Under the pieces are notes generated by a model. It saw only the letters and a program-made list of their open reading frames with translations, was not told where the DNA came from and did not search any database. A stretch of 64,000 nt of DNA from an uncultured Bacteroidota bacterium (lineage in GTDB: Bacteria > Bacteroidota > Ignavibacteria > UBA10030 > UBA8401): contig CAVYWA010000022.1 in the NCBI GenBank assembly GCA_963772165.1, forward strand, positions 2,832 through 66,831. Reading direction: 5' to 3'. This document shows, piece after piece, positions 4,365-62,687 of the stretch. Each line of letters opens with the position of its first letter. Position 1 is the first letter of the stretch. Both the position numbers and the translations under genes were made by a program.

Positions 4365-4540
4365 GGTCCTGGTTCTTAGTCCGTAGTCCTGAGTCCTGTG
4401 AGTCCTGGGTTCTGAGTCCTGGGTTCTGAGTCCGAGTCTCTTAGTCCTGGGTCTTGAGTCCTGGGTTCTGAGTCCGGAGTCCTGGGTCTTAAGTCCCTCT
4501 CTTATCTCTTATCTCTTAATTTCTTAATTCTTATTTCTAC
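4365..4540. repeat. Composite heptamer array (AGTCCTG/GGTTCTG)n plus (TCTCTTA/TTTCTTA)n filling the whole spacer
   Basis: Directly visible. Confidence 0.95.
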
Positions 4541-5842: not shown

Positions 5843-5846
5843 GTAT

Positions 5847-6026
5847 GAGTCCTGAGTCCGGAGTTCTGAGTCCGTAGTCCTGTGTCCGGAGTTCTGAGTC
5901 CGGAGTCCATAGTCTGTGGTAAAGGGTTCTGTTTATACCATCTCAAACCTAAAATTCCTAATTCATCATTCTTATCTCTTATCTTCTTACTTTCTTACTT
6001 CTTACTTCTTACTTCTTACTTCTTAA
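5847..6026. repeat. Heptamer arrays (AGTCCNG)n at 5847-5920 and (TTCTTAC)n at 5968-6026
   Basis: Directly visible; the second array overlaps the fcl 3' end. Confidence 0.9.
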
Positions 6027-7025
6027 CCACCCCTCGTACCACTCAATCGTCTTTTTCACCCCTTCCGCCAGCGGAACTTTTGCCTTCCATCCCAGCGCAT
6101 TGATCTTGCCGACATCCAGCAGTTTTCTCGGCGTACCGTCCGGCTTCGAAGTATCAAACACGATTTTCCCTTGATACCCTACACTTGCGCCGATCAACTG
6201 TGCCAGTTCGAGAATCGAGACATCTGTCCCCATGCCAATATTAATGATATCACTCTCATTATACTGTTCCATAAGAAAGACACACGCGTTCGCCATGTCG
6301 TCGGCATAGAGGAACTCCCGTTTCGCTTTTCCCGTCCCCCATAATGTCACCGATGGGGACTGCGCATTCCGTGCTTCAACGAACTTACGTATCAACGCCG
6401 GCAACACGTGAGAATTCTGCAGATCGAAATTGTCATTCGGCCCGTAGAGGTTCGTGGGCATCACCGAAATAGAATTCGTTCCGTACTGCTTGTTGTACGC
6501 CTGGCACATTTTGATGCCGGCAATTTTTGCCACGGCGTACGCTTCGTTCGTCGGCTCCAGCTTGCCGTCGAGCAGGTATTCTTCCTTGATCGGCTGAGGC
6601 GAGAATTTAGGATAGATGCAGGAGCTTCCCAGAAAACAAAGCTTCTTCACGCGGTTCAAATACGAGGAATGGATGACGTTGTTCTGGATTTGTAAATTGT
6701 CGAAGATAAACTCAGCGGGATAGGTACTGTTCGCGTGGATCCCTCCGACTTTAGCAGCCGCCAAAAAAACATATTCCGGCTTTTCCTTTTCAAAAAAATC
6801 TTGAACTGCTCCCTGGTTTTCAAGTTCCAGCTCGCCGTGAGTGCGCATGACAATGTTCGCGTATCCTGCGGATTGGAGCGCACGTACAATCGAAGAGCCG
6901 ACAAGTCCGCGATGACCGGCAACGTATATTTTAGATGAATGGTCCGTAGTGGTTAGTCCGTGGTCTGGAGTCCGTGGTCCGTAGTTCGTGGTCCTGAGTC
7001 CGTGGTCTGGAGTTGTGAATTTCAA
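6009..7025 (-). CDS. fcl: GDP-L-fucose synthase (start uncertain)
   Basis: [59 protein letters not shown]. Confidence 0.95.
6940..7012. repeat. Heptamer array (RGTCCGT/GGTCTGG)n, downstream arm of the inverted pair around the four-helix-bundle gene
   Basis: Directly visible; reverse complement of 7446-7501. Confidence 0.92.
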
Positions 7026-7043: not shown

Positions 7044-7403
7044 TTACTGCTTAAGATACTTGATAAATCCGCCGATCATCCGTTTAGCCTCCGAAGCTTG
7101 TTCGAAACATTTTTGAAAGTCCGGTTCAACGATATATCCGGAATCCAATGCTACATACAATAACGATTGGACTTCAGACGCTGAACGATACGAATACCTC
7201 AAAAAGCTTACGAATGCTTTATCGGATCCTGAGTCAAAACCTTCCGCGATATTAGACATTATTGAAACGCTGGCACGCTGTATTTGATCGCGTAATCCGA
7301 AATCTTTAAAGAACTTCTGTTGAGCAGTAATTCTATAGACAGCCTTTGTTAATTCCCTTCCTTTTTTCCATGAATCAATGTCTTCGAAACGCACAATCTT
7401 CAT
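7044..7403 (-). CDS. Four helix bundle protein (23S rRNA IVS-protein / Avd-like family)
   Basis: FEDIDSWKKG..LRDQIQRASVSIMSNIAEGF..FLRYSYRSASEVQSLLYVALDSGYI. Confidence 0.92.
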   Translation of the reverse strand: MKIVRFEDIDSWKKGRELTKAVYRITAQQKFFKDFGLRDQIQRASVSIMSNIAEGFDSGSDKAFVSFLRYSYRSASEVQSLLYVALDSGYIVEPDFQKCFEQASEAKRMIGGFIKYLKQ

Positions 7404-8575: not shown

Positions 8576-8675
8576 TGAGTCCGTAGTCCTAAGTCCGTAG
8601 TCCTGAGTCCGTAGTCCTGAGTCAATTTATCTTTTCTCTTATCTCTATTTCTTATCTCTTATTTCTTATCTCTTA
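8576..8675. repeat. Composite heptamer array (AGTCCGT-AGTCCTR)n plus (TCTCTTA/TTTCTTA)n
   Basis: Directly visible; on the minus strand it begins at the TAA stop of 8673..9626. Confidence 0.93.
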
Positions 8676-9801: not shown

Positions 9802-10767
9802 TTAGCTATTTTCTAACTTCAACCTTTTTTTAAAGTACTCGATTGTCCGCAACAATCCTTCTTTACGGGATATTTGCGGCTCCCAGCCGAGCACGCTTTT
9901 CGCTTTTGAAATATCCGGCTGCCGAATCTTGGGGTCGTCCTGGGGAAGCTCTTTGAAAATGATTGTGCTCGAGCTGTGAGTCAATTGAACGATCTCTTTC
10001 GCGAGCTGAAGCATCGTCAACTCGGCGGGATTCCCGATGTTCATCGGAAGAGTGTACTCGGACATCATTAATTTGAAAATGCCGTCGATGAGATCAGAAA
10101 CATAACAGACGCTTCGTGTTTGGCTCCCGTCGCCGAAGACCGTAATATCTTCTCCCCGCAGCGCTTGTGAGATGAAAGCCGGAATAGCCCGGCCATCGTC
10201 GACCCTCATCCGTTCACCATAGGTATTAAAAATTCTTATGATTCGTGTCTCTACCCCATGATAGCGGTGATACGCCATCGTCATCGCCTCGGCAAATCGT
10301 TTCGCTTCGTCATACACGCCGCGCGGCCCGACCGGATTGACATGCCCCCAGTATTCTTCGACCTGCGGATGAATTTCAGGGTCGCCGTACACTTCCGATG
10401 TTGATGCGAGAAAGAACCGGGCATTCTTGGCCTTCGCTAATCCCAGTGCTTTGTGTGTTCCGAGAGAACCGACCTTCAGGGTCTGGATCGGAAGCTTTAA
10501 ATAATCGATGGGACTAGCCGGCGATGCAAAATGAAACACATAATCTACCCTGCCGTCGAGAAAGATGTACTCCGTAACATCATGATGAAAAAAGCTGAAG
10601 TGGGTATTGCCCAGCAAGTGTGCAATGTTTGCGGTGTCGCCTGTAATAAGATTATCGATACAGATAACGGAATGGCCTTCGGCAAGAAGTCTGTCGCAAA
10701 GATGCGATCCAAGAAAGCCAGCCCCGCCTGTGACGACGGAGGTTTTATTGGTTGGAGAAGAAGTCAC
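9802..10767 (-). CDS. UDP-glucuronate decarboxylase (UDP-xylose synthase) family SDR
   Basis: [53 protein letters not shown]. Confidence 0.9.
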
Positions 10768-10777
10768 GATTTATAGT

Positions 10778-10830
10778 CGAATAGTGGAATGATGGAATAA
10801 TGGAATAGTGGAATGGTGGAATGGTGAAAT
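10778..10830. repeat. Octamer array (GGAATRRT)n, downstream arm of the inverted pair
   Basis: CGAATAGT GGAATGAT GGAATAAT GGAATAGT GGAATGGT GGAATGGT GAAAT. Confidence 0.93.
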
Positions 10831-11243
10831 CATAGGGCTTCTATCCAACTTCCTTCTTTCTGCTTAGCCTGCAATGATTTCTTCAACGCAAGCAATTTAT
10901 TTTCGACCGAATAATGCAAAACATCGAATTCTTCAAACGATGTCTTTGAGATAACTCCGATTTCTTTGAATCCAATCATCCTTGTAAATAATTCTCCTGA
11001 GGATCCGAGGGCAATATTCAAAAATTGAAGATATTCTCGAATCGACCTTCGACAATAACCTTCTGCAATGTTTGAAGAAACTGATTGTGCAGCATTCAAA
11101 AGCTGAGATCGTAATTTAAAATCGACGAATCCCTCTTCCAGGATGAGGCTGCAAATCCAGCGAAACAAATACATCGCCTCATTCCACACCTCTAACTTCA
11201 TATATCCCCTGTTTACATTCCTGCGCCTTGTATATTCCTCCAT
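10830..11243 (-). CDS. Four helix bundle protein (23S rRNA IVS-protein / Avd-like family)
   Basis: GYMKLEVWNEA..LRSQLLNAAQSVSSNIAEGYCRRSIREYLQFLNIALGSSGEL. Confidence 0.92.
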   Translation of the reverse strand: MEEYTRRRNVNRGYMKLEVWNEAMYLFRWICSLILEEGFVDFKLRSQLLNAAQSVSSNIAEGYCRRSIREYLQFLNIALGSSGELFTRMIGFKEIGVISKTSFEEFDVLHYSVENKLLALKKSLQAKQKEGSWIEAL

Positions 11244-11252
11244 AAAACACCC

Positions 11253-11308
11253 CCAATTCCATTATTCCACTATTCCCCCATTCCATAATTCCACCATTCC
11301 AATATTCC
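11253..11308. repeat. Octamer array (CCANNATT)n, upstream arm of the inverted pair
   Basis: CCATTATT CCACTATT CCCCCATT CCATAATT CCACCATT CCAATATT CC; reverse complement of 10778-10830. Confidence 0.93.
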
Positions 11309-11319
11309 GTCCCCCCAAC

Positions 11320-12628
11320 TCATTCCCCATTCCTTCCGATTCCGAAATAGGTAAACCCTCTCTCCCGCATCAGTTTCGGGTCGTAAATATTCCGCCCGTC
11401 AAAAATGACCGGGTGCTTCATCAACGATTTTACCCTCTCAAAATCGGGACGTCGAAACTCGTTCCACTCGGTAATGACGGCGAGCGCATCGGCGCCTTTC
11501 AACGCCTCGTAGTTGTTGTCGAAGAAATCTACTTTCCCGCCGAACAAGCCCCTCATTTTTGAAATTGCAATCGGATCGTGAGCTCGTATTTTAGCGCCAA
11601 GCTCTAATAAGCTGTTAATGACGACAACCGCAGGCGCTTCTCGTATGTCATCGGTTTGCGGTTTAAAGGAGAGCCCCCAGATGGCGATGACTTTTTGCTT
11701 AATCTGATTGTTGAAATGGCGAAGCATTTTTTTGACAATCAGCCGTTTCTGCCTCTCATTAACTTCATCGACCGCCCGCAATATTTTGAATTCATACTCA
11801 TGCTCTTGTGCAGTTTTGATCAATGCTTTGACATCTTTAGGAAAACAAGAGCCGCCGTAACCGACTCCGGCAAAAAGAAACTGCTGGCCGATGCGCGGAT
11901 CACTTCCCATCCCCTTCCTCACCCACTCAACGTCAGCACCGGACTTATCACAGAGATTTGCAAGCTCGTTCATAAACGAGATTTTCGTCGCGAGGAATGA
12001 ATTCGCCGCATATTTTGTCATTTCGGCGCTCCATTCGTCCATCACCATAATTGGATTTCCCGTCCGTACGAACGGCGCATACACATCCATCAACACCGAA
12101 ATGGCCTTCTTACTTTTTGAGCCGATAACAATTCTGTCGGGTTTGAGGGAATCCTCGATTGCCGAACCCTCTTTTAAAAATTCAGGGTTCGAGACAACAT
12201 CAACTTCTTGTTTCCCTTTCTTTTTCAAAATCTGGCGAATTTTATCGACCGTCCCGACCGGAACTGTGCTCTTGCTGACAAGAATCTTATATTCGTTGGC
12301 GTACAGTTGCAATCTGATCGACGACCGCCAACACACGTGTCAAATCAGCCGAGCCGTCGTCCGACTGAGGCGTCGGCAGACAAAGAAAGATTACTTTTCC
12401 ACGCTCGACTGCCGCTTTGAGCGATGTCGTAAACTCAAGCCGCTTCTCCTGGGCGTTTCGCCGTACGAGCTCCTCAAGGCCCGGTTCGTAGATCGGGATG
12501 ATCCCTTTTTTCAAGTTCGAGATTTTCTTTTCGTCGATGTCCATGCACATAACGGAGTTGCCGGTGTCGGCAAAACAGGCACCCTGCACTAACCCGACGT
12601 ACCCTGTTCCTATAATCGATATTTCCAT
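11320..12628 (-). CDS. ugd: UDP-glucose 6-dehydrogenase (frameshift near 12290-12335)
   Basis: Two ORFs: GTGYVGL..IYEPGL..CLPTP and KSTVPVGT..SNPEFLKEG..GYGGSCFPKD..SFKPQTDDIRE. Confidence 0.93.
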
Positions 12629-37786: not shown

Positions 37787-37823
37787 TCCCAATCCATCTC
37801 ACCATTCCAATATTCCATCATTC
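37787..37823. repeat. Short orphan octamer array (CCANNATT-like) after the export gene
   Basis: TCCCAATCCATCTCACCATTCCAATATTCCATCATTC. Confidence 0.6.
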
Positions 37824-37831
37824 TTTCTCGG

Positions 37832-57236: not shown

Positions 57237-59609
57237 TTGATAAAAGAAAAGGAAGCAATCACAATGGGAAAGTCACTACTTCTGCTCGTTTTATTTTGCG
57301 CAATAGCAGGCGCGCAGCAATTAAGCAATCCACAGCAAACTCCAGACACGGCCAACAAACGTCTCTTCACTCAGAATAAGGGACAATGGAACCCCGTGGT
57401 AAATACGGACACTCCCTCCTTCTCGCCGGTATCAGATACAATTGACGCCAAAGTGATCACGGATAGAAGGGTATTTCAAAAACATGAACATAAAGATCGA
57501 ATGACCCTTTCAAAAGTCATTAGCAGCAGGGCTGCAACAGCATTGAAGACAGAAGCCGATACCGGCTCGGTTTATTGGCAACAAGCCAATGGACCTTATG
57601 GAGTGGATGTGACTTCCATAGTGATCAATTCATCCGGGAACATTTTTGCAGGAACTGATCGAGGAATATATCTTTCAACTAACAATGGGAGTAGTTGGGC
57701 ACAGGAAAATAATGGTCTGACTAACCCGGCAGTGAGATCTTTAGCGATCAATTCATCTGGATATATTTTTGCAGGAGTTCGCGGAGCAGTCTGTCTTTCA
57801 ACAAATAATGGCAGTAGTTGGACTTATGTAGATAGTGGTTTGGCTGACGTGTACGTGAATTCATTAGCGAGCAATGCATCGGGGGACATTTTTGCAGGAA
57901 CTTATGGAGAAGGAGTATATCTCTCAACAAATAATGGAAGCGGTTGGACAGAGGTAAATAATGGTTTGACGGACACGGATGTGTTGTCTTTAGCGATAAA
58001 TTCATCGGGAAACATTTTTGCAGGAACTGACGGAGGAATATACCTTTCAACAAATAATGGGAGTAGCTGGACAGAGGTAAATAATGGTTTGACGAACACG
58101 GACGTGTTGTCTTTAGCAATCAATTCATCGGGAAATGTTTTTGCAGGAACTGATGGAGGAATATACCTTTCAACAAATAATGGGAGTAGTTGGACTCAGG
58201 TAAATAGCGGTTTGGCGAACACGGAGGTGCTTTCATTAGCAATCAATGCATCGGGAAATGTTTTTGCAGGAACTTATGATAGAGGCGTTTATCTTTTGAC
58301 AAGTAACGGCAACAGCTGGACCTGCGTAGATAGTGGTTTGGCAAGCACGAATGTGTATTCATTAGCGATCAATGCATCGGGGAACATTTTTGCTGGAATT
58401 GGCGGAGGCATTTATCTTTCTACGAATAATGGGAGTAGTTGGACAGAAGCAAATAATGGTCTGAGGGGTGCGAAGGTCTTGTCTTTCGCGATCAATTCGT
58501 CGGGGAACATTTTTGCTGGAACTGATGAAGGAATATATCTTTCAACAAATAATGGGAGTAGTTGGACTCAGGTAAATAACGGATTGGGGAATGCGGATGT
58601 GTGGTCTTTAGTGATGAATTCATCTGGGTATATTTTTGCAGGAACCTATGGAGAAGGAGTATATTTTTCAACAAATAATGGCAGCAGTTGGACACAGGTA
58701 AATTATTCTGATTTGTCGTACAAGAATGTGCAGGCATTAGCGATCAATTCATCGGGGTACATTCTTGCAGGCATTCATGATGGGGGCGCCTATCTGTCAA
58801 CAAATAATGGCAGCAGTTGGATTCGGGTAGATAGCGGTTGGACGACAGCGAATGTGCTGTCATTCGCGATCAATGCATCGGGAAACATTTTTGCAGGAAT
58901 TGAAGGAGGAGTATATCTTTCGACAAATAATGGAAGTAGTTGGACTAACATAGGTTTGACGAACACGGGGGAGGTGTTTTCTTTAGCGATCAATGCATCG
59001 GGGGACATTTTTGCAGGAGAGTATAGAGAAGGCGTTTATCTTTCAACAAATGATGGTACTAGTTGGACTCAAACAAGTTTGGACAGCATGTTTGTATATG
59101 CATTGGCGATTAATAGATCGGGGGACATTTTTGCAGGAACTACTAGTGGAGGAGCTTCTGGAGGAGCAGTATATCATTCAACAAATAATGGGAGTAGTTG
59201 GACAGAGGTAAATAATGGTTTGACGAACACTAATGTGTATTCATTAGCGATCGATTCATCGGGGTATATTTTTGCAGGAACTGCGGGAGGTGTTTTTCGA
59301 TCAATGAATTCGACAACTGACGTAAAAACACAACACACTATTGCAAAGGAATTTGCTTTGTTACAAAATTATCCAAATCCGTTCAATCCAAGCACAGTCA
59401 TCAGCTATCAGCTTCCAGTCAACGGTTACGTTACCTTGAAAGTTTATGATGTGTTAGGTAGAGAGGTGAAAACTCTGGTTAACGATCGTCAGACTGCGGG
59501 CACTCACTCGGTTACGTTCGACGCGCGCACGTTAGCGAGCGGAGTGTATTTCTACAGGCTTAGTGCTGGGAGTTTTGTTAGCACGAAGAAATTGATGTTG
59601 ATCAAGTAG
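57237..59609 (+). CDS. Secreted 14-repeat BNR-type beta-propeller protein with secretion CTD (likely start MGKSLLL)
   Basis: 14 copies of SLAIN.SG.IFAGT.GG.YLSTNNGSSWT; QNYPNPFNPST CTD. Confidence 0.92.
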   Translation: MIKEKEAITMGKSLLLLVLFCAIAGAQQLSNPQQTPDTANKRLFTQNKGQWNPVVNTDTPSFSPVSDTIDAKVITDRRVFQKHEHKDRMTLSKVISSRAATALKTEADTGSVYWQQANGPYGVDVTSIVINSSGNIFAGTDRGIYLSTNNGSSWAQENNGLTNPAVRSLAINSSGYIFAGVRGAVCLSTNNGSSWTYVDSGLADVYVNSLASNASGDIFAGTYGEGVYLSTNNGSGWTEVNNGLTDTDVLSLAINSSGNIFAGTDGGIYLSTNNGSSWTEVNNGLTNTDVLSLAINSSGNVFAGTDGGIYLSTNNGSSWTQVNSGLANTEVLSLAINASGNVFAGTYDRGVYLLTSNGNSWTCVDSGLASTNVYSLAINASGNIFAGIGGGIYLSTNNGSSWTEANNGLRGAKVLSFAINSSGNIFAGTDEGIYLSTNNGSSWTQVNNGLGNADVWSLVMNSSGYIFAGTYGEGVYFSTNNGSSWTQVNYSDLSYKNVQALAINSSGYILAGIHDGGAYLSTNNGSSWIRVDSGWTTANVLSFAINASGNIFAGIEGGVYLSTNNGSSWTNIGLTNTGEVFSLAINASGDIFAGEYREGVYLSTNDGTSWTQTSLDSMFVYALAINRSGDIFAGTTSGGASGGAVYHSTNNGSSWTEVNNGLTNTNVYSLAIDSSGYIFAGTAGGVFRSMNSTTDVKTQHTIAKEFALLQNYPNPFNPSTVISYQLPVNGYVTLKVYDVLGREVKTLVNDRQTAGTHSVTFDARTLASGVYFYRLSAGSFVSTKKLMLIK

Positions 59610-62320: not shown

Positions 62321-62362
62321 TGCATTCCCCTCATATTTTTTTCTGTCATCCATCCTTTTCAT

Positions 62363-62687
62363 TGTCATCCTGATCCCGCCGCTTTATGGCGGGAGAAGGA
62401 TCCACAACACTGCACTGCCGTAACGGGAGGATGTCCCATCAGAAAAACTTACGGGCCACCAGACTGCAGTGCCATGGATTCTTCGTCGCTACGCTCCTCA
62501 GAATGACAAAGACTGTTGCCTTTTCATTGTCATCCTGATCCCGCCGCTTTATGGCGGGAGAAGGATCCACGACACTGCACTGCCGTAACGGTAGGATGTC
62601 CCATCAGAAAAACTTACGGGTCGCCAAACTGCAGTGTCATAGATTCTTCGTCTCCCGACGAAAAGCGTCGGGATCCTCAGAATGACA
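62363..62687. repeat. Two tandem palindromic REP-like elements (TGTCATCCTGA...TCAGAATGACA), period 165 bp
   Basis: 62363-62508 and 62528-62687 are near-identical except for the right-hand internal hairpin. Confidence 0.92.

Follow-up and report, generated by a model that had tools for sequence, protein, structure and literature searches.

A four-helix-bundle gene enclosed by inverted octamer arrays at the ugd–uxs junction of an uncultured member of the Ignavibacteria

The DNA described here, referred to as the window, is a stretch of 64 000 nt from an uncultured Bacteroidota bacterium (GTDB lineage Bacteria; Bacteroidota; Ignavibacteria; UBA10030; UBA8401), positions 2832 to 66 831 of contig CAVYWA010000022.1 in assembly GCA_963772165.1. 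Between a gene of the UDP-glucose 6-dehydrogenase type (ugd) and one of the UDP-glucuronate decarboxylase type (uxs) lies a small gene encoding a four-helix-bundle (4HB) protein, enclosed by two tandem arrays of an 8-nt unit in inverted orientation (Table 1). The gene and its arrays are termed the cassette, and the arrays its upstream and downstream arms. The names ugd and uxs were read from the sequence, without a family scan. Both neighbours are protein-coding open reading frames (ORFs), and the locus is not inside helix 25 or 45 of a 23S rRNA gene. The uxs start codon is situated about 10 nt beyond the end of the downstream arm.

Table 1. Features of the cassette and its host genes (window coordinates)
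Feature	Position	Strand	Basis
Downstream host gene, UDP-glucuronate decarboxylase type (uxs)	9802..10767	minus	ORF list; orthologues 69–91% identical in 29 of 36 relatives
Downstream arm, seven complementary octamers NNNATTCC, from the stop codon	10773..10832	minus	Tandem Repeats Finder (TRF), pattern matches, inverted repeats
4HB gene, 137 aa, PF05635/TIGR02436	10830..11243	minus	ORF list and profile matches
GGGGG Shine–Dalgarno-like run, 6 nt 5' of the ATG	11250..11254	minus	Sequence
Upstream arm, seven octamers GGAATNNT	11251..11311	minus	TRF, pattern matches, inverted-repeat arms
Last ugd codons (GIGRNGE, stop) with three GGAAT/GGAAG words, out of register with the arm	11320..11345	minus	Sequence
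Upstream host gene, C-terminal two thirds of UDP-glucose 6-dehydrogenase type (ugd)	11320..12336	minus	ORF list; C-terminal 200 residues 83–91.5% identical in genus relatives

In gene orientation, the units of the upstream arm read GGAATATT, GGAATGGT, GGAATTAT, GGAATGGG, GGAATAGT, GGAATAAT and GGAATTGG, and those of the downstream arm TGATTTC, ACCATTCC, ACCATTCC, ACTATTCC, ATTATTCC, ATCATTCC and ACTATTCG. TRF reported period-8 arrays on opposite strands, at 10773–10830 (7.2 copies, 86% matches) and 11256–11308 (6.6 copies, 77% matches). This agrees with the layout of inverted octamer arms between ugd and uxs, with about six to seven copies per arm, that an earlier reading of the bare sequence (the original prediction) had described. 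A three-unit octamer pattern, GGAATNNTGGAATNNTGGAAT, allowing at most one mismatch, has 11 matches in the window, compared with 0.01 expected from shuffled sequence, and none of 100 shuffles reached 11; 10 of the matches lie within the two arms and one at 37804–37824. Complementarity of the arms was found in seven registers (20–50 nt, 79–95%); because both arms are wholly tandem octamer, they can pair in many registers. The flank complementarity score, 34 over 52 nt, is the highest amongst the 12 paralogues of this genome, and the maximum of 400 random controls was 14. The octamer arms are the only repeats seen at the locus by TRF and inverted-repeat search. The octamer-armed cassette is real and not a product of chance.

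The original prediction also let the upstream arm run on into the end of ugd, and here it was only partly right. GGAAT-like words are present, but they are mostly conserved GIGRNGE coding sequence, and relatives with other arms read GGGATCGGGAGGAATGGGGAGTAG. The ugd end in genus relatives reads ...GGAATGGGGAGTAG whatever arms follow, and in the window only the last codon and the stop differ. The ugd gene itself is split by a frameshift or an assembly error: its N-terminal 113 aa are encoded by ORF 12287..12628 and the remainder by ORF 11320..12336, which overlaps the former in another frame.

The same design is found repeatedly in this genome, the assembly of which (28 contigs) is 100% complete by markers. 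A profile search gave 12 PF05635 matches, and at the flanks of the paralogues the order is again array, G run, ORF and inverted array, with a unit that differs each time; the units include AGAATWC, GTCCGNR, TGATCAT-like, GTGAAAA, TAATTCC, TTGAAAT, GATAAGA and CTAAATC. All 12 paralogues have a run of at least four Gs within about 20 nt 5' of the start. Flank complementarity exceeds all 400 random controls in nine of the 12 and reaches the 1% level in one more; it is not above chance in the other two, one of which has an in-frame TGA. The paralogue at 7044..7403 in the window had been described as clearly divergent from the octamer-cassette protein, and the two proteins are about 27% identical over 89 residues (tblastn). 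With 12 cassettes in one genome, each with its own unit, and with units that cluster on the protein tree, the earlier view of the layout as an independent recurrence and not a coincidence holds.

The genome contains 190 arrays of at least three copies with a period of 6–9, of which 174 are heptamers, and 31 inverted array pairs within 1.5 kb; 16 of these pairs are gene-less hairpins with 9–47 nt between the arms, whilst five rows of pairs, representing four genes, enclose a 4HB gene. When the gene-less arrays, defined as those more than 400 nt from any 4HB gene, were compared with the arms of the 12 paralogues, 150 of 177 had an exact 10-mer in common with one of them. The control for this comparison, 12 random places in lieu of the paralogues, averaged 40.7 and never exceeded 77, the average being high because random places can themselves hit arrays. 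A version of the comparison with 7-mers was void (177 of 177, against about 167 in controls) and was replaced by the exact 10-mers. Few gene-less copies of the octamer were seen in the genome, at C27:116962, C12:250849 and window 37790–37826. The last is a solo array of about four GGAAT-type octamers between co-directional minus-strand genes, with no 4HB gene.

Five composite direct arrays occur in the same minus-strand operon as the cassette, at 1639–1806, 2553–2697, 4366–4538, 5846–6025 and 8576–8675. In gene orientation each consists of (GATAAGA)n followed by (RGGACTC)n, is situated directly 5' of the next start codon and has no 4HB gene inside. The part at 1639–1755 comprises 16.7 near-perfect AGTCCGT units.

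The repeat unit of the cassette follows its protein through a wide range of bacteria. Seven loci in 61 related genomes encode proteins 57–63% identical to that of the window (two of them identical in sequence), and in every case the flanks are inverted octamers, GGAATNNT or GGATNNNT; the gene contexts of the seven are of at least four kinds. From public genomes, the best 80 of 145 relatives were kept; the sources of these clade A proteins include Ignavibacteriota, Bacteroidota, WOR-3/Stahlbacteria, Neomarinimicrobiota, Calditrichia, Planctomycetota, Verrucomicrobiota, Chlamydiae, Fibrobacterota and Lentisphaerae. The proteins related to the 7044..7403 paralogue were designated clade B. Flanks of 120 nt were scored by a 4-mer spacing statistic, with false positives in 9.1% of 703 control windows; this replaced a self-match autocorrelation (18–32-nt windows), which under-detects degenerate octamers because three of the eight positions vary. 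Amongst 84 clade A loci, arrays were detected upstream in 62 (59 of period 8), downstream in 58 (51 of period 8) and in either flank in 74. For the 96 clade B loci the corresponding numbers are 62 upstream (44 of period 7 and 14 of period 8), 69 downstream (56 and 11) and 84 in either flank. By a conservative measure, the median arm length in both clades is about 3.5–3.9 units, or about 28–30 nt, with a mode of four. The idea that arms are built for a pentamer was rejected on this measure, as their length is not centred on five units.

Amongst clade A loci at least 55% identical (31 loci from public genomes, after removal of two duplicates and the window itself), period 8 was found in 30, and at least three TGGA[AGT] cores were present in a flank in 26; two of the other five carry GGGNT-type octamers. 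The original prediction would have been in difficulty if close homologues were flanked by unrelated arrays or by none, and this is not the picture given either by these loci or by the seven in related genomes. On a tree of 82 clade A proteins, from which rows with stops or X and the duplicates L003 and L035 were left out and in which the window is one row, the unit-core classes need 26 changes, compared with 46.1 after shuffling, and none of 200 shuffles was as low. A well-supported clade of 22 carries GGAAT/GGAGT units and another, of 22–23, carries TGAATG/TGCATG/TGTATG/GATTG units, all of period 8. A joint tree of 177 distinct proteins, with 148 rows labelled as 7 or 8, needs 10 changes of unit length, compared with 48.8 shuffled (minimum 40 in 300 shuffles). 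A phylogeny with the unit mapped on it had been suggested as a check, and unit length and core both cluster on the protein tree. A repeat length of 8 and a TGGAR core are conserved traits of the clade A protein across many phyla. Some alignment columns distinguish proteins with TGGAN-type arms from those with TGNATG-type arms, but every one of these columns is confounded with a single clade, and no conclusion can be based on them.

Comparison of the ugd–uxs junction itself reveals considerable turnover. The uxs protein was searched in 36 relatives, and the DNA 5' of 30 orthologues was inspected. In 11 of the 30, a 4HB gene is situated directly upstream of uxs, and four cassette types can be distinguished. 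The clade A type, with arm unit GGAATNNT, is found in G000, G007, G008 and G043; a second type, in G010, G006 and G001, has AGTRAAT heptamers and an extra local hairpin 3' of the gene; a third, in G009, G011 and G003, has GGAGTAA heptamers; and a fourth, in G014, has GAGAAAN heptamers. The other junction types are about 27–40% identical to the two window proteins, which served as tblastn queries and are the only queries with which the types were compared. At least three distinct types, each with its own arms, thus occur at this junction within one genus, in which the end of ugd is well conserved (Table 1). Of the 19 junctions that lack a 4HB gene, seven were examined; six of these have no array and the seventh, in G050, has a solo GGAGTAG array and a palindrome. 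The cassette therefore comes and goes with its arms, and the junction is a hot spot. The block of gene and arms is the unit that is inherited, gained and replaced.

Some cassettes, including L192, L193 and L197 (in G010, G006 and G001, respectively), L007, L034, L066, L067 and L102, have a third array. This is a forward copy, situated 3' of the gene and capable of local pairing with the downstream arm, which thus has two alternative partners. Contigs from four DNA read runs were short and broke at arrays. One, with a depth of about 6, has a different upstream arm, and one matches the G007-type cassette; these data are too thin to use.

Against curated cut-offs of 33.8 and 24 bits, respectively, the 4HB protein reaches 75.2 bits with PF05635 and 73.6 bits with TIGR02436, 'four helix bundle protein'. 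An AlphaFold2 model of the 137-aa protein, based on 64 aligned clade members, predicts four long helices and a short N-terminal one (mean model confidence, pLDDT, 92.4). In Foldseek comparisons, with TM scores by target, the best matches are 2gsc (0.88–0.92) and 2rld (0.75–0.89), followed by Avd proteins of diversity-generating retroelements (DGRs; 8ub7, 4dwl and 8ube, 0.75–0.87); phmmer also finds 2gsc (E = 8e-11). These two best matches in sequence and fold, Xcc0516 (2gsc) and BT_0352 (2rld), are PF05635 proteins without an assigned function, and the entries of both contain five chains. In contrast with these, clade A proteins have a conserved basic N-terminal motif, RRNxNRGYxKLxVW in the 64-member alignment, in which N-x-N-R-G is nearly invariant and lies in a basic stretch, and a C-terminal GxW. 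The PF05635 family is very large and has solved structures, and we know of no function for it outside DGRs. The Xanthomonas protein (Xcc0516) is cited as a homopentameric ring in the available text of PMC4990558, and Avd is described as homologous to PF05635 proteins in that of PMC10053308. The likeness to Avd (4dwl, 8ub7) is one of fold; sequence identity is only about 10%, the gene is a stand-alone cassette and the genome lacks a reverse transcriptase. No RVT_1 match was found in the whole genome, whereas control genomes gave matches, and membership of a DGR was therefore rejected. Nor was a template/variable repeat pair seen at the locus, although no search aimed at one was made.

The orientation of the cassette relative to its neighbours is strongly biased. 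With neighbours called crudely, as the longest open frame, both are on the cassette strand at 65 of 75 clade A loci and 64 of 87 clade B loci, and both are opposite at one and five, respectively. The cassette depends on the orientation of its host operon. Promoter-like sites at the cassette are not in excess (two, with 2.1 expected), and no terminator-like sites were found, with 1.2 expected. A predicted fold of the 581-nt sense RNA has the arms paired in both the minimum free energy and the centroid structure; its minimum free energy of −169.2 kcal/mol (z = −2.98) was equalled by none of 100 shuffles. The genome has an RNase III gene. A look-up of RNA sequencing runs listed none that contains the locus.

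These features invite comparison with the intervening sequences (IVS) of 23S rRNA genes. According to the available text of PMC4990558, the Coxiella burnetii IVS is 428 nt long, contains an S23p ORF of the same protein family, has a 28-bp terminal stem that is cut by RNase III in vitro and carries three to four tandem heptamers before the ORF, in a number varying among strains; it is read there as horizontally acquired. An ORF-bearing 23S IVS is also recorded for Leptospira (work of Ralph and McClelland from 1993, as cited in PMC4990558). On that account, the IVS and the present cassettes are alike in the protein family, the length of the insert (about 430–580 nt), an ORF between terminal inverted repeats forming a stem of about 28 bp or more, short tandem repeats of variable number just 5' of the ORF, a sense orientation in the host transcript and a sporadic distribution read as horizontal transfer. 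The cassette arm length of about 28–30 nt is similar to the 28-bp Coxiella stem. The differences are that the host here is the protein-coding ugd–uxs operon and not rRNA helix 45; that both arms are wholly tandem octamer, with many pairing registers and a unit type that follows the protein clade; and that excision by RNase III is experimental for the rRNA relatives and a prediction here.

The arms also resemble intergenic repeat arrays reported from other bacteria. For two Xanthomonas genomes, the available text of PMC4692102 counts 186 and 183 heptamer arrays of the GGGAATC type, mostly of four units and with 70 and 75 convergent pairs; it also gives GGGGAYT arrays in Nostoc, and that of PMC4679880 describes TAACTGA repeats before start codons in the Beggiatoaceae. 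As described there, such arrays share with ours tandem 7–8-nt units that have a conserved core and variable positions, mostly about four units, an intergenic position that is often just 5' of a start codon, and frequent convergent pairs able to form stem–loops. The arms thus have the features of such arrays (tandem units of about 7 nt, a conserved core, intergenic location and convergent pairs), with an 8-nt unit in this case. The difference is that those two papers, in the text available, link the arrays to no gene family, whereas most array families in this genome match the arms of a 4HB paralogue. A literature search, which did not cover supplements or subscription journals, found no account of PF05635 cassettes with flanking repeat arrays outside rRNA. 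To our knowledge, the over-representation of intergenic heptamer repeats in bacteria is unexplained.

The reading that we favour, with an evenly balanced expectation that it is correct, is that this is an IVS-type cassette, in which a ribosome-binding site and a PF05635 gene lie within complementary octamer arrays as a sense insert in a polysaccharide operon; the insert would be processed at the RNA level and perhaps have its own reader. The cassette would be transcribed by read-through of the operon. Its arms would then pair in the RNA, in any of several registers, giving a stem of about 50 bp that loops out the insert between ugd and uxs, and RNase III may cut this stem by analogy with the rRNA-borne relatives, on which read-through, arm pairing and cutting are all modelled. 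Cutting would free a translatable 4HB mRNA and split the host message in two. With a universal host factor only one unit would be expected, but a dozen coexist, each with its paralogue, and the 8-nt unit outlasts 40–60% protein identity and the saturation of neutral sites. Both observations suggest that a sequence-specific reader travels with the cassette, and the only candidate on board is the 4HB protein. This protein, the relatives of which form five-subunit rings, would bind its own repeat, (GGAAUNNU)n, or the DNA forms of that repeat. Sequence comparison points to the 4HB protein as the reader, and we propose this step tentatively, expecting it to be wrong rather more readily than right; this caution is due to the arrays of G001 and to a unit length that is labile in clade B.

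Several results weigh against this interpretation. Matches to the three-unit GGART octamer pattern were found in 19 of the 61 relatives (and in none for a reversed control pattern), amongst them genomes without a close clade A gene: G002 (89 matches), G003 (45), G004 (41) and the complete genome of G001 (12). Where an assembly is fragmented, a cassette that is short and enclosed by long arrays may just have escaped assembly, an excuse that fails for G001 because that genome is complete. G001 has intact GGAAT octamer arrays in at least five places, solo or as hairpins between genes; it has no close clade A homologue, and no GGAAT arms were found at 13 examined flanks of its 14 PF05635 matches. 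In clade B, unit length is labile, since it changes nine times among 79 labelled loci, 14 of which have octamers (13.1 changes in shuffles, minimum 11). Moreover, co-inheritance of gene and arms would by itself make units cluster on a tree, and loci that are related are not independent of each other. The original prediction had proposed paralogue-specific repeat codes. A repeat type that is heritable with the protein clade supports part of this, but a functional code for each paralogue is limited by the G001 arrays and the lability in clade B.

With regard to pairing, few loci (12 of 69 in clade A and 14 of 80 in clade B) beat a permutation of unit order at p ≤ 0.05, and variable arm positions are mostly unmirrored. 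Arm mismatches on the sense strand divide into 90 G.U and 76 A.C in clade A (p = 0.31) and 113 and 101 in clade B (p = 0.45). As G.U has no bias over A.C, there is no visible selection for one fixed RNA helix, and the near-null outcome of both tests indicates that the arms share a unit family and are not a base-by-base mirror of each other. A shared unit family fits pairing in multiple registers, sites for a protein, or both.

An unlikely alternative is a mobile element acting at the DNA level. The arms would be terminal inverted-repeat arrays, serving as multiple protein sites or as hairpins in single-stranded DNA, the 4HB protein would help host recombination or replication enzymes, and the gene-less arrays would be miniature non-autonomous derivatives. 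The 10-mers that gene-less arrays share with paralogue arms (150 of 177), the 16 gene-less hairpins amongst 31 inverted pairs and the swapping of cassette types at one junction are all in keeping with this, and arms that are unmirrored and without G.U bias are expected if the units are sites rather than base pairs. However, the block contains a single ORF and matches no catalytic family. No transposase, recombinase or reverse transcriptase was seen in the block, and RVT_1 is absent from the genome, although no genome-wide pairing with transposases was tried. Inspection of the arm ends, by eye only, showed no direct target duplication. DNA mobility would not in itself be expected to give the 65:1 sense bias, though such a bias could be generated by selection once insertion has occurred, and homologous recombination in ugd and uxs could explain the replacements at the junction.

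It also seems improbable, to a similar degree, that the arrays belong to the host as intergenic hairpins with a role of their own, such as mRNA stability, punctuation or termination, similar to the heptamers of Xanthomonas and Nostoc. The 4HB genes would then be passengers that land in arrays or recombine with them, and the link between clade and unit would merely reflect which arrays a cassette recombines with. Gene-less GGAAT arrays and hairpins in G001–G004, which have no clade A gene, favour this, as do the five composite arrays before genes of the same operon, the solo octamer array at 37790–37826 and the Xanthomonas GGGAATC arrays, which are presented in the available text of PMC4692102 without mention of PF05635. 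Against it, clade A keeps the 8-nt period and the TGGAR core in Ignavibacteriota, Bacteroidota, Planctomycetota, Verrucomicrobiota and other groups, which would not be so if the arrays were host-specific. In addition, six of the seven gene-less ugd–uxs junctions examined have no array and one has a solo array, and at least 10 unit families, each with one matching paralogue, coexist in the genome. The idea of an ordinary small gene that happens to lie beside low-complexity sequence, for which the AT-rich, repeat-rich intergenic DNA of this genome (190 short-period arrays) is the sole argument, is refuted by the excess of pattern matches, the complementarity score and the recurrence of the layout in 74 of 84 relatives.

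The importance of the IVS-type cassette lies in a repeat type that tracks a protein clade across phyla, in a single genome with a dozen gene–unit pairs and about 150 matching gene-less arrays, and in the swapping of cassettes at one fixed junction of an operon. Were the arms to be processed in the manner of an rRNA IVS, cassettes would cut host operon transcripts at defined points and affect expression of the surrounding polysaccharide genes. A broader proposal, which we consider possible but doubtful, is that PF05635 is a family of ring-shaped, sequence-specific readers, with a particular 7- or 8-nt unit for each clade, recognized in RNA or in single-stranded DNA, and that the cassette is a self-recognizing selfish unit. 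If so, each paralogue would act on gene-less arrays elsewhere, at least 150 in this genome, including those that punctuate the polysaccharide operon, and the abundant heptamer repeats of Xanthomonas, cyanobacteria and others would be binding sites of PF05635 proteins.

Several other repeats were observed in the window and its genome. The GDP-fucose-synthase-type ORF at 6009..7025 has no start codon near its conserved N-terminus (window 6955–7025). Its apparent start is a TTG that lies within the first 4HB cassette, in the downstream arm, in which case translation of the heptamer array would give the protein an N-terminal extension. At 1307–1573, upstream of the long AGTCCGT array, a 106-nt unit and an 83-nt unit are each repeated about twice, and every unit has GATAAGA-type heptamers at its borders. 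A dispersed, intergenic element of about 100 nt, with inverted CGCAAAG-type octamer words around an AT-rich centre, looks like a separate family similar to repetitive extragenic palindromic elements; its sites include C14:119855, C16:126425, C23:30663, C5:274187 and C9:434812 in G000. Tandem repeats of 123, 249 and 372 nt at 57619–59290 (13 copies of the 123-nt unit) and a 165-nt tandem repeat at 62354–62652 (1.8 copies) are unrelated to the cassette.

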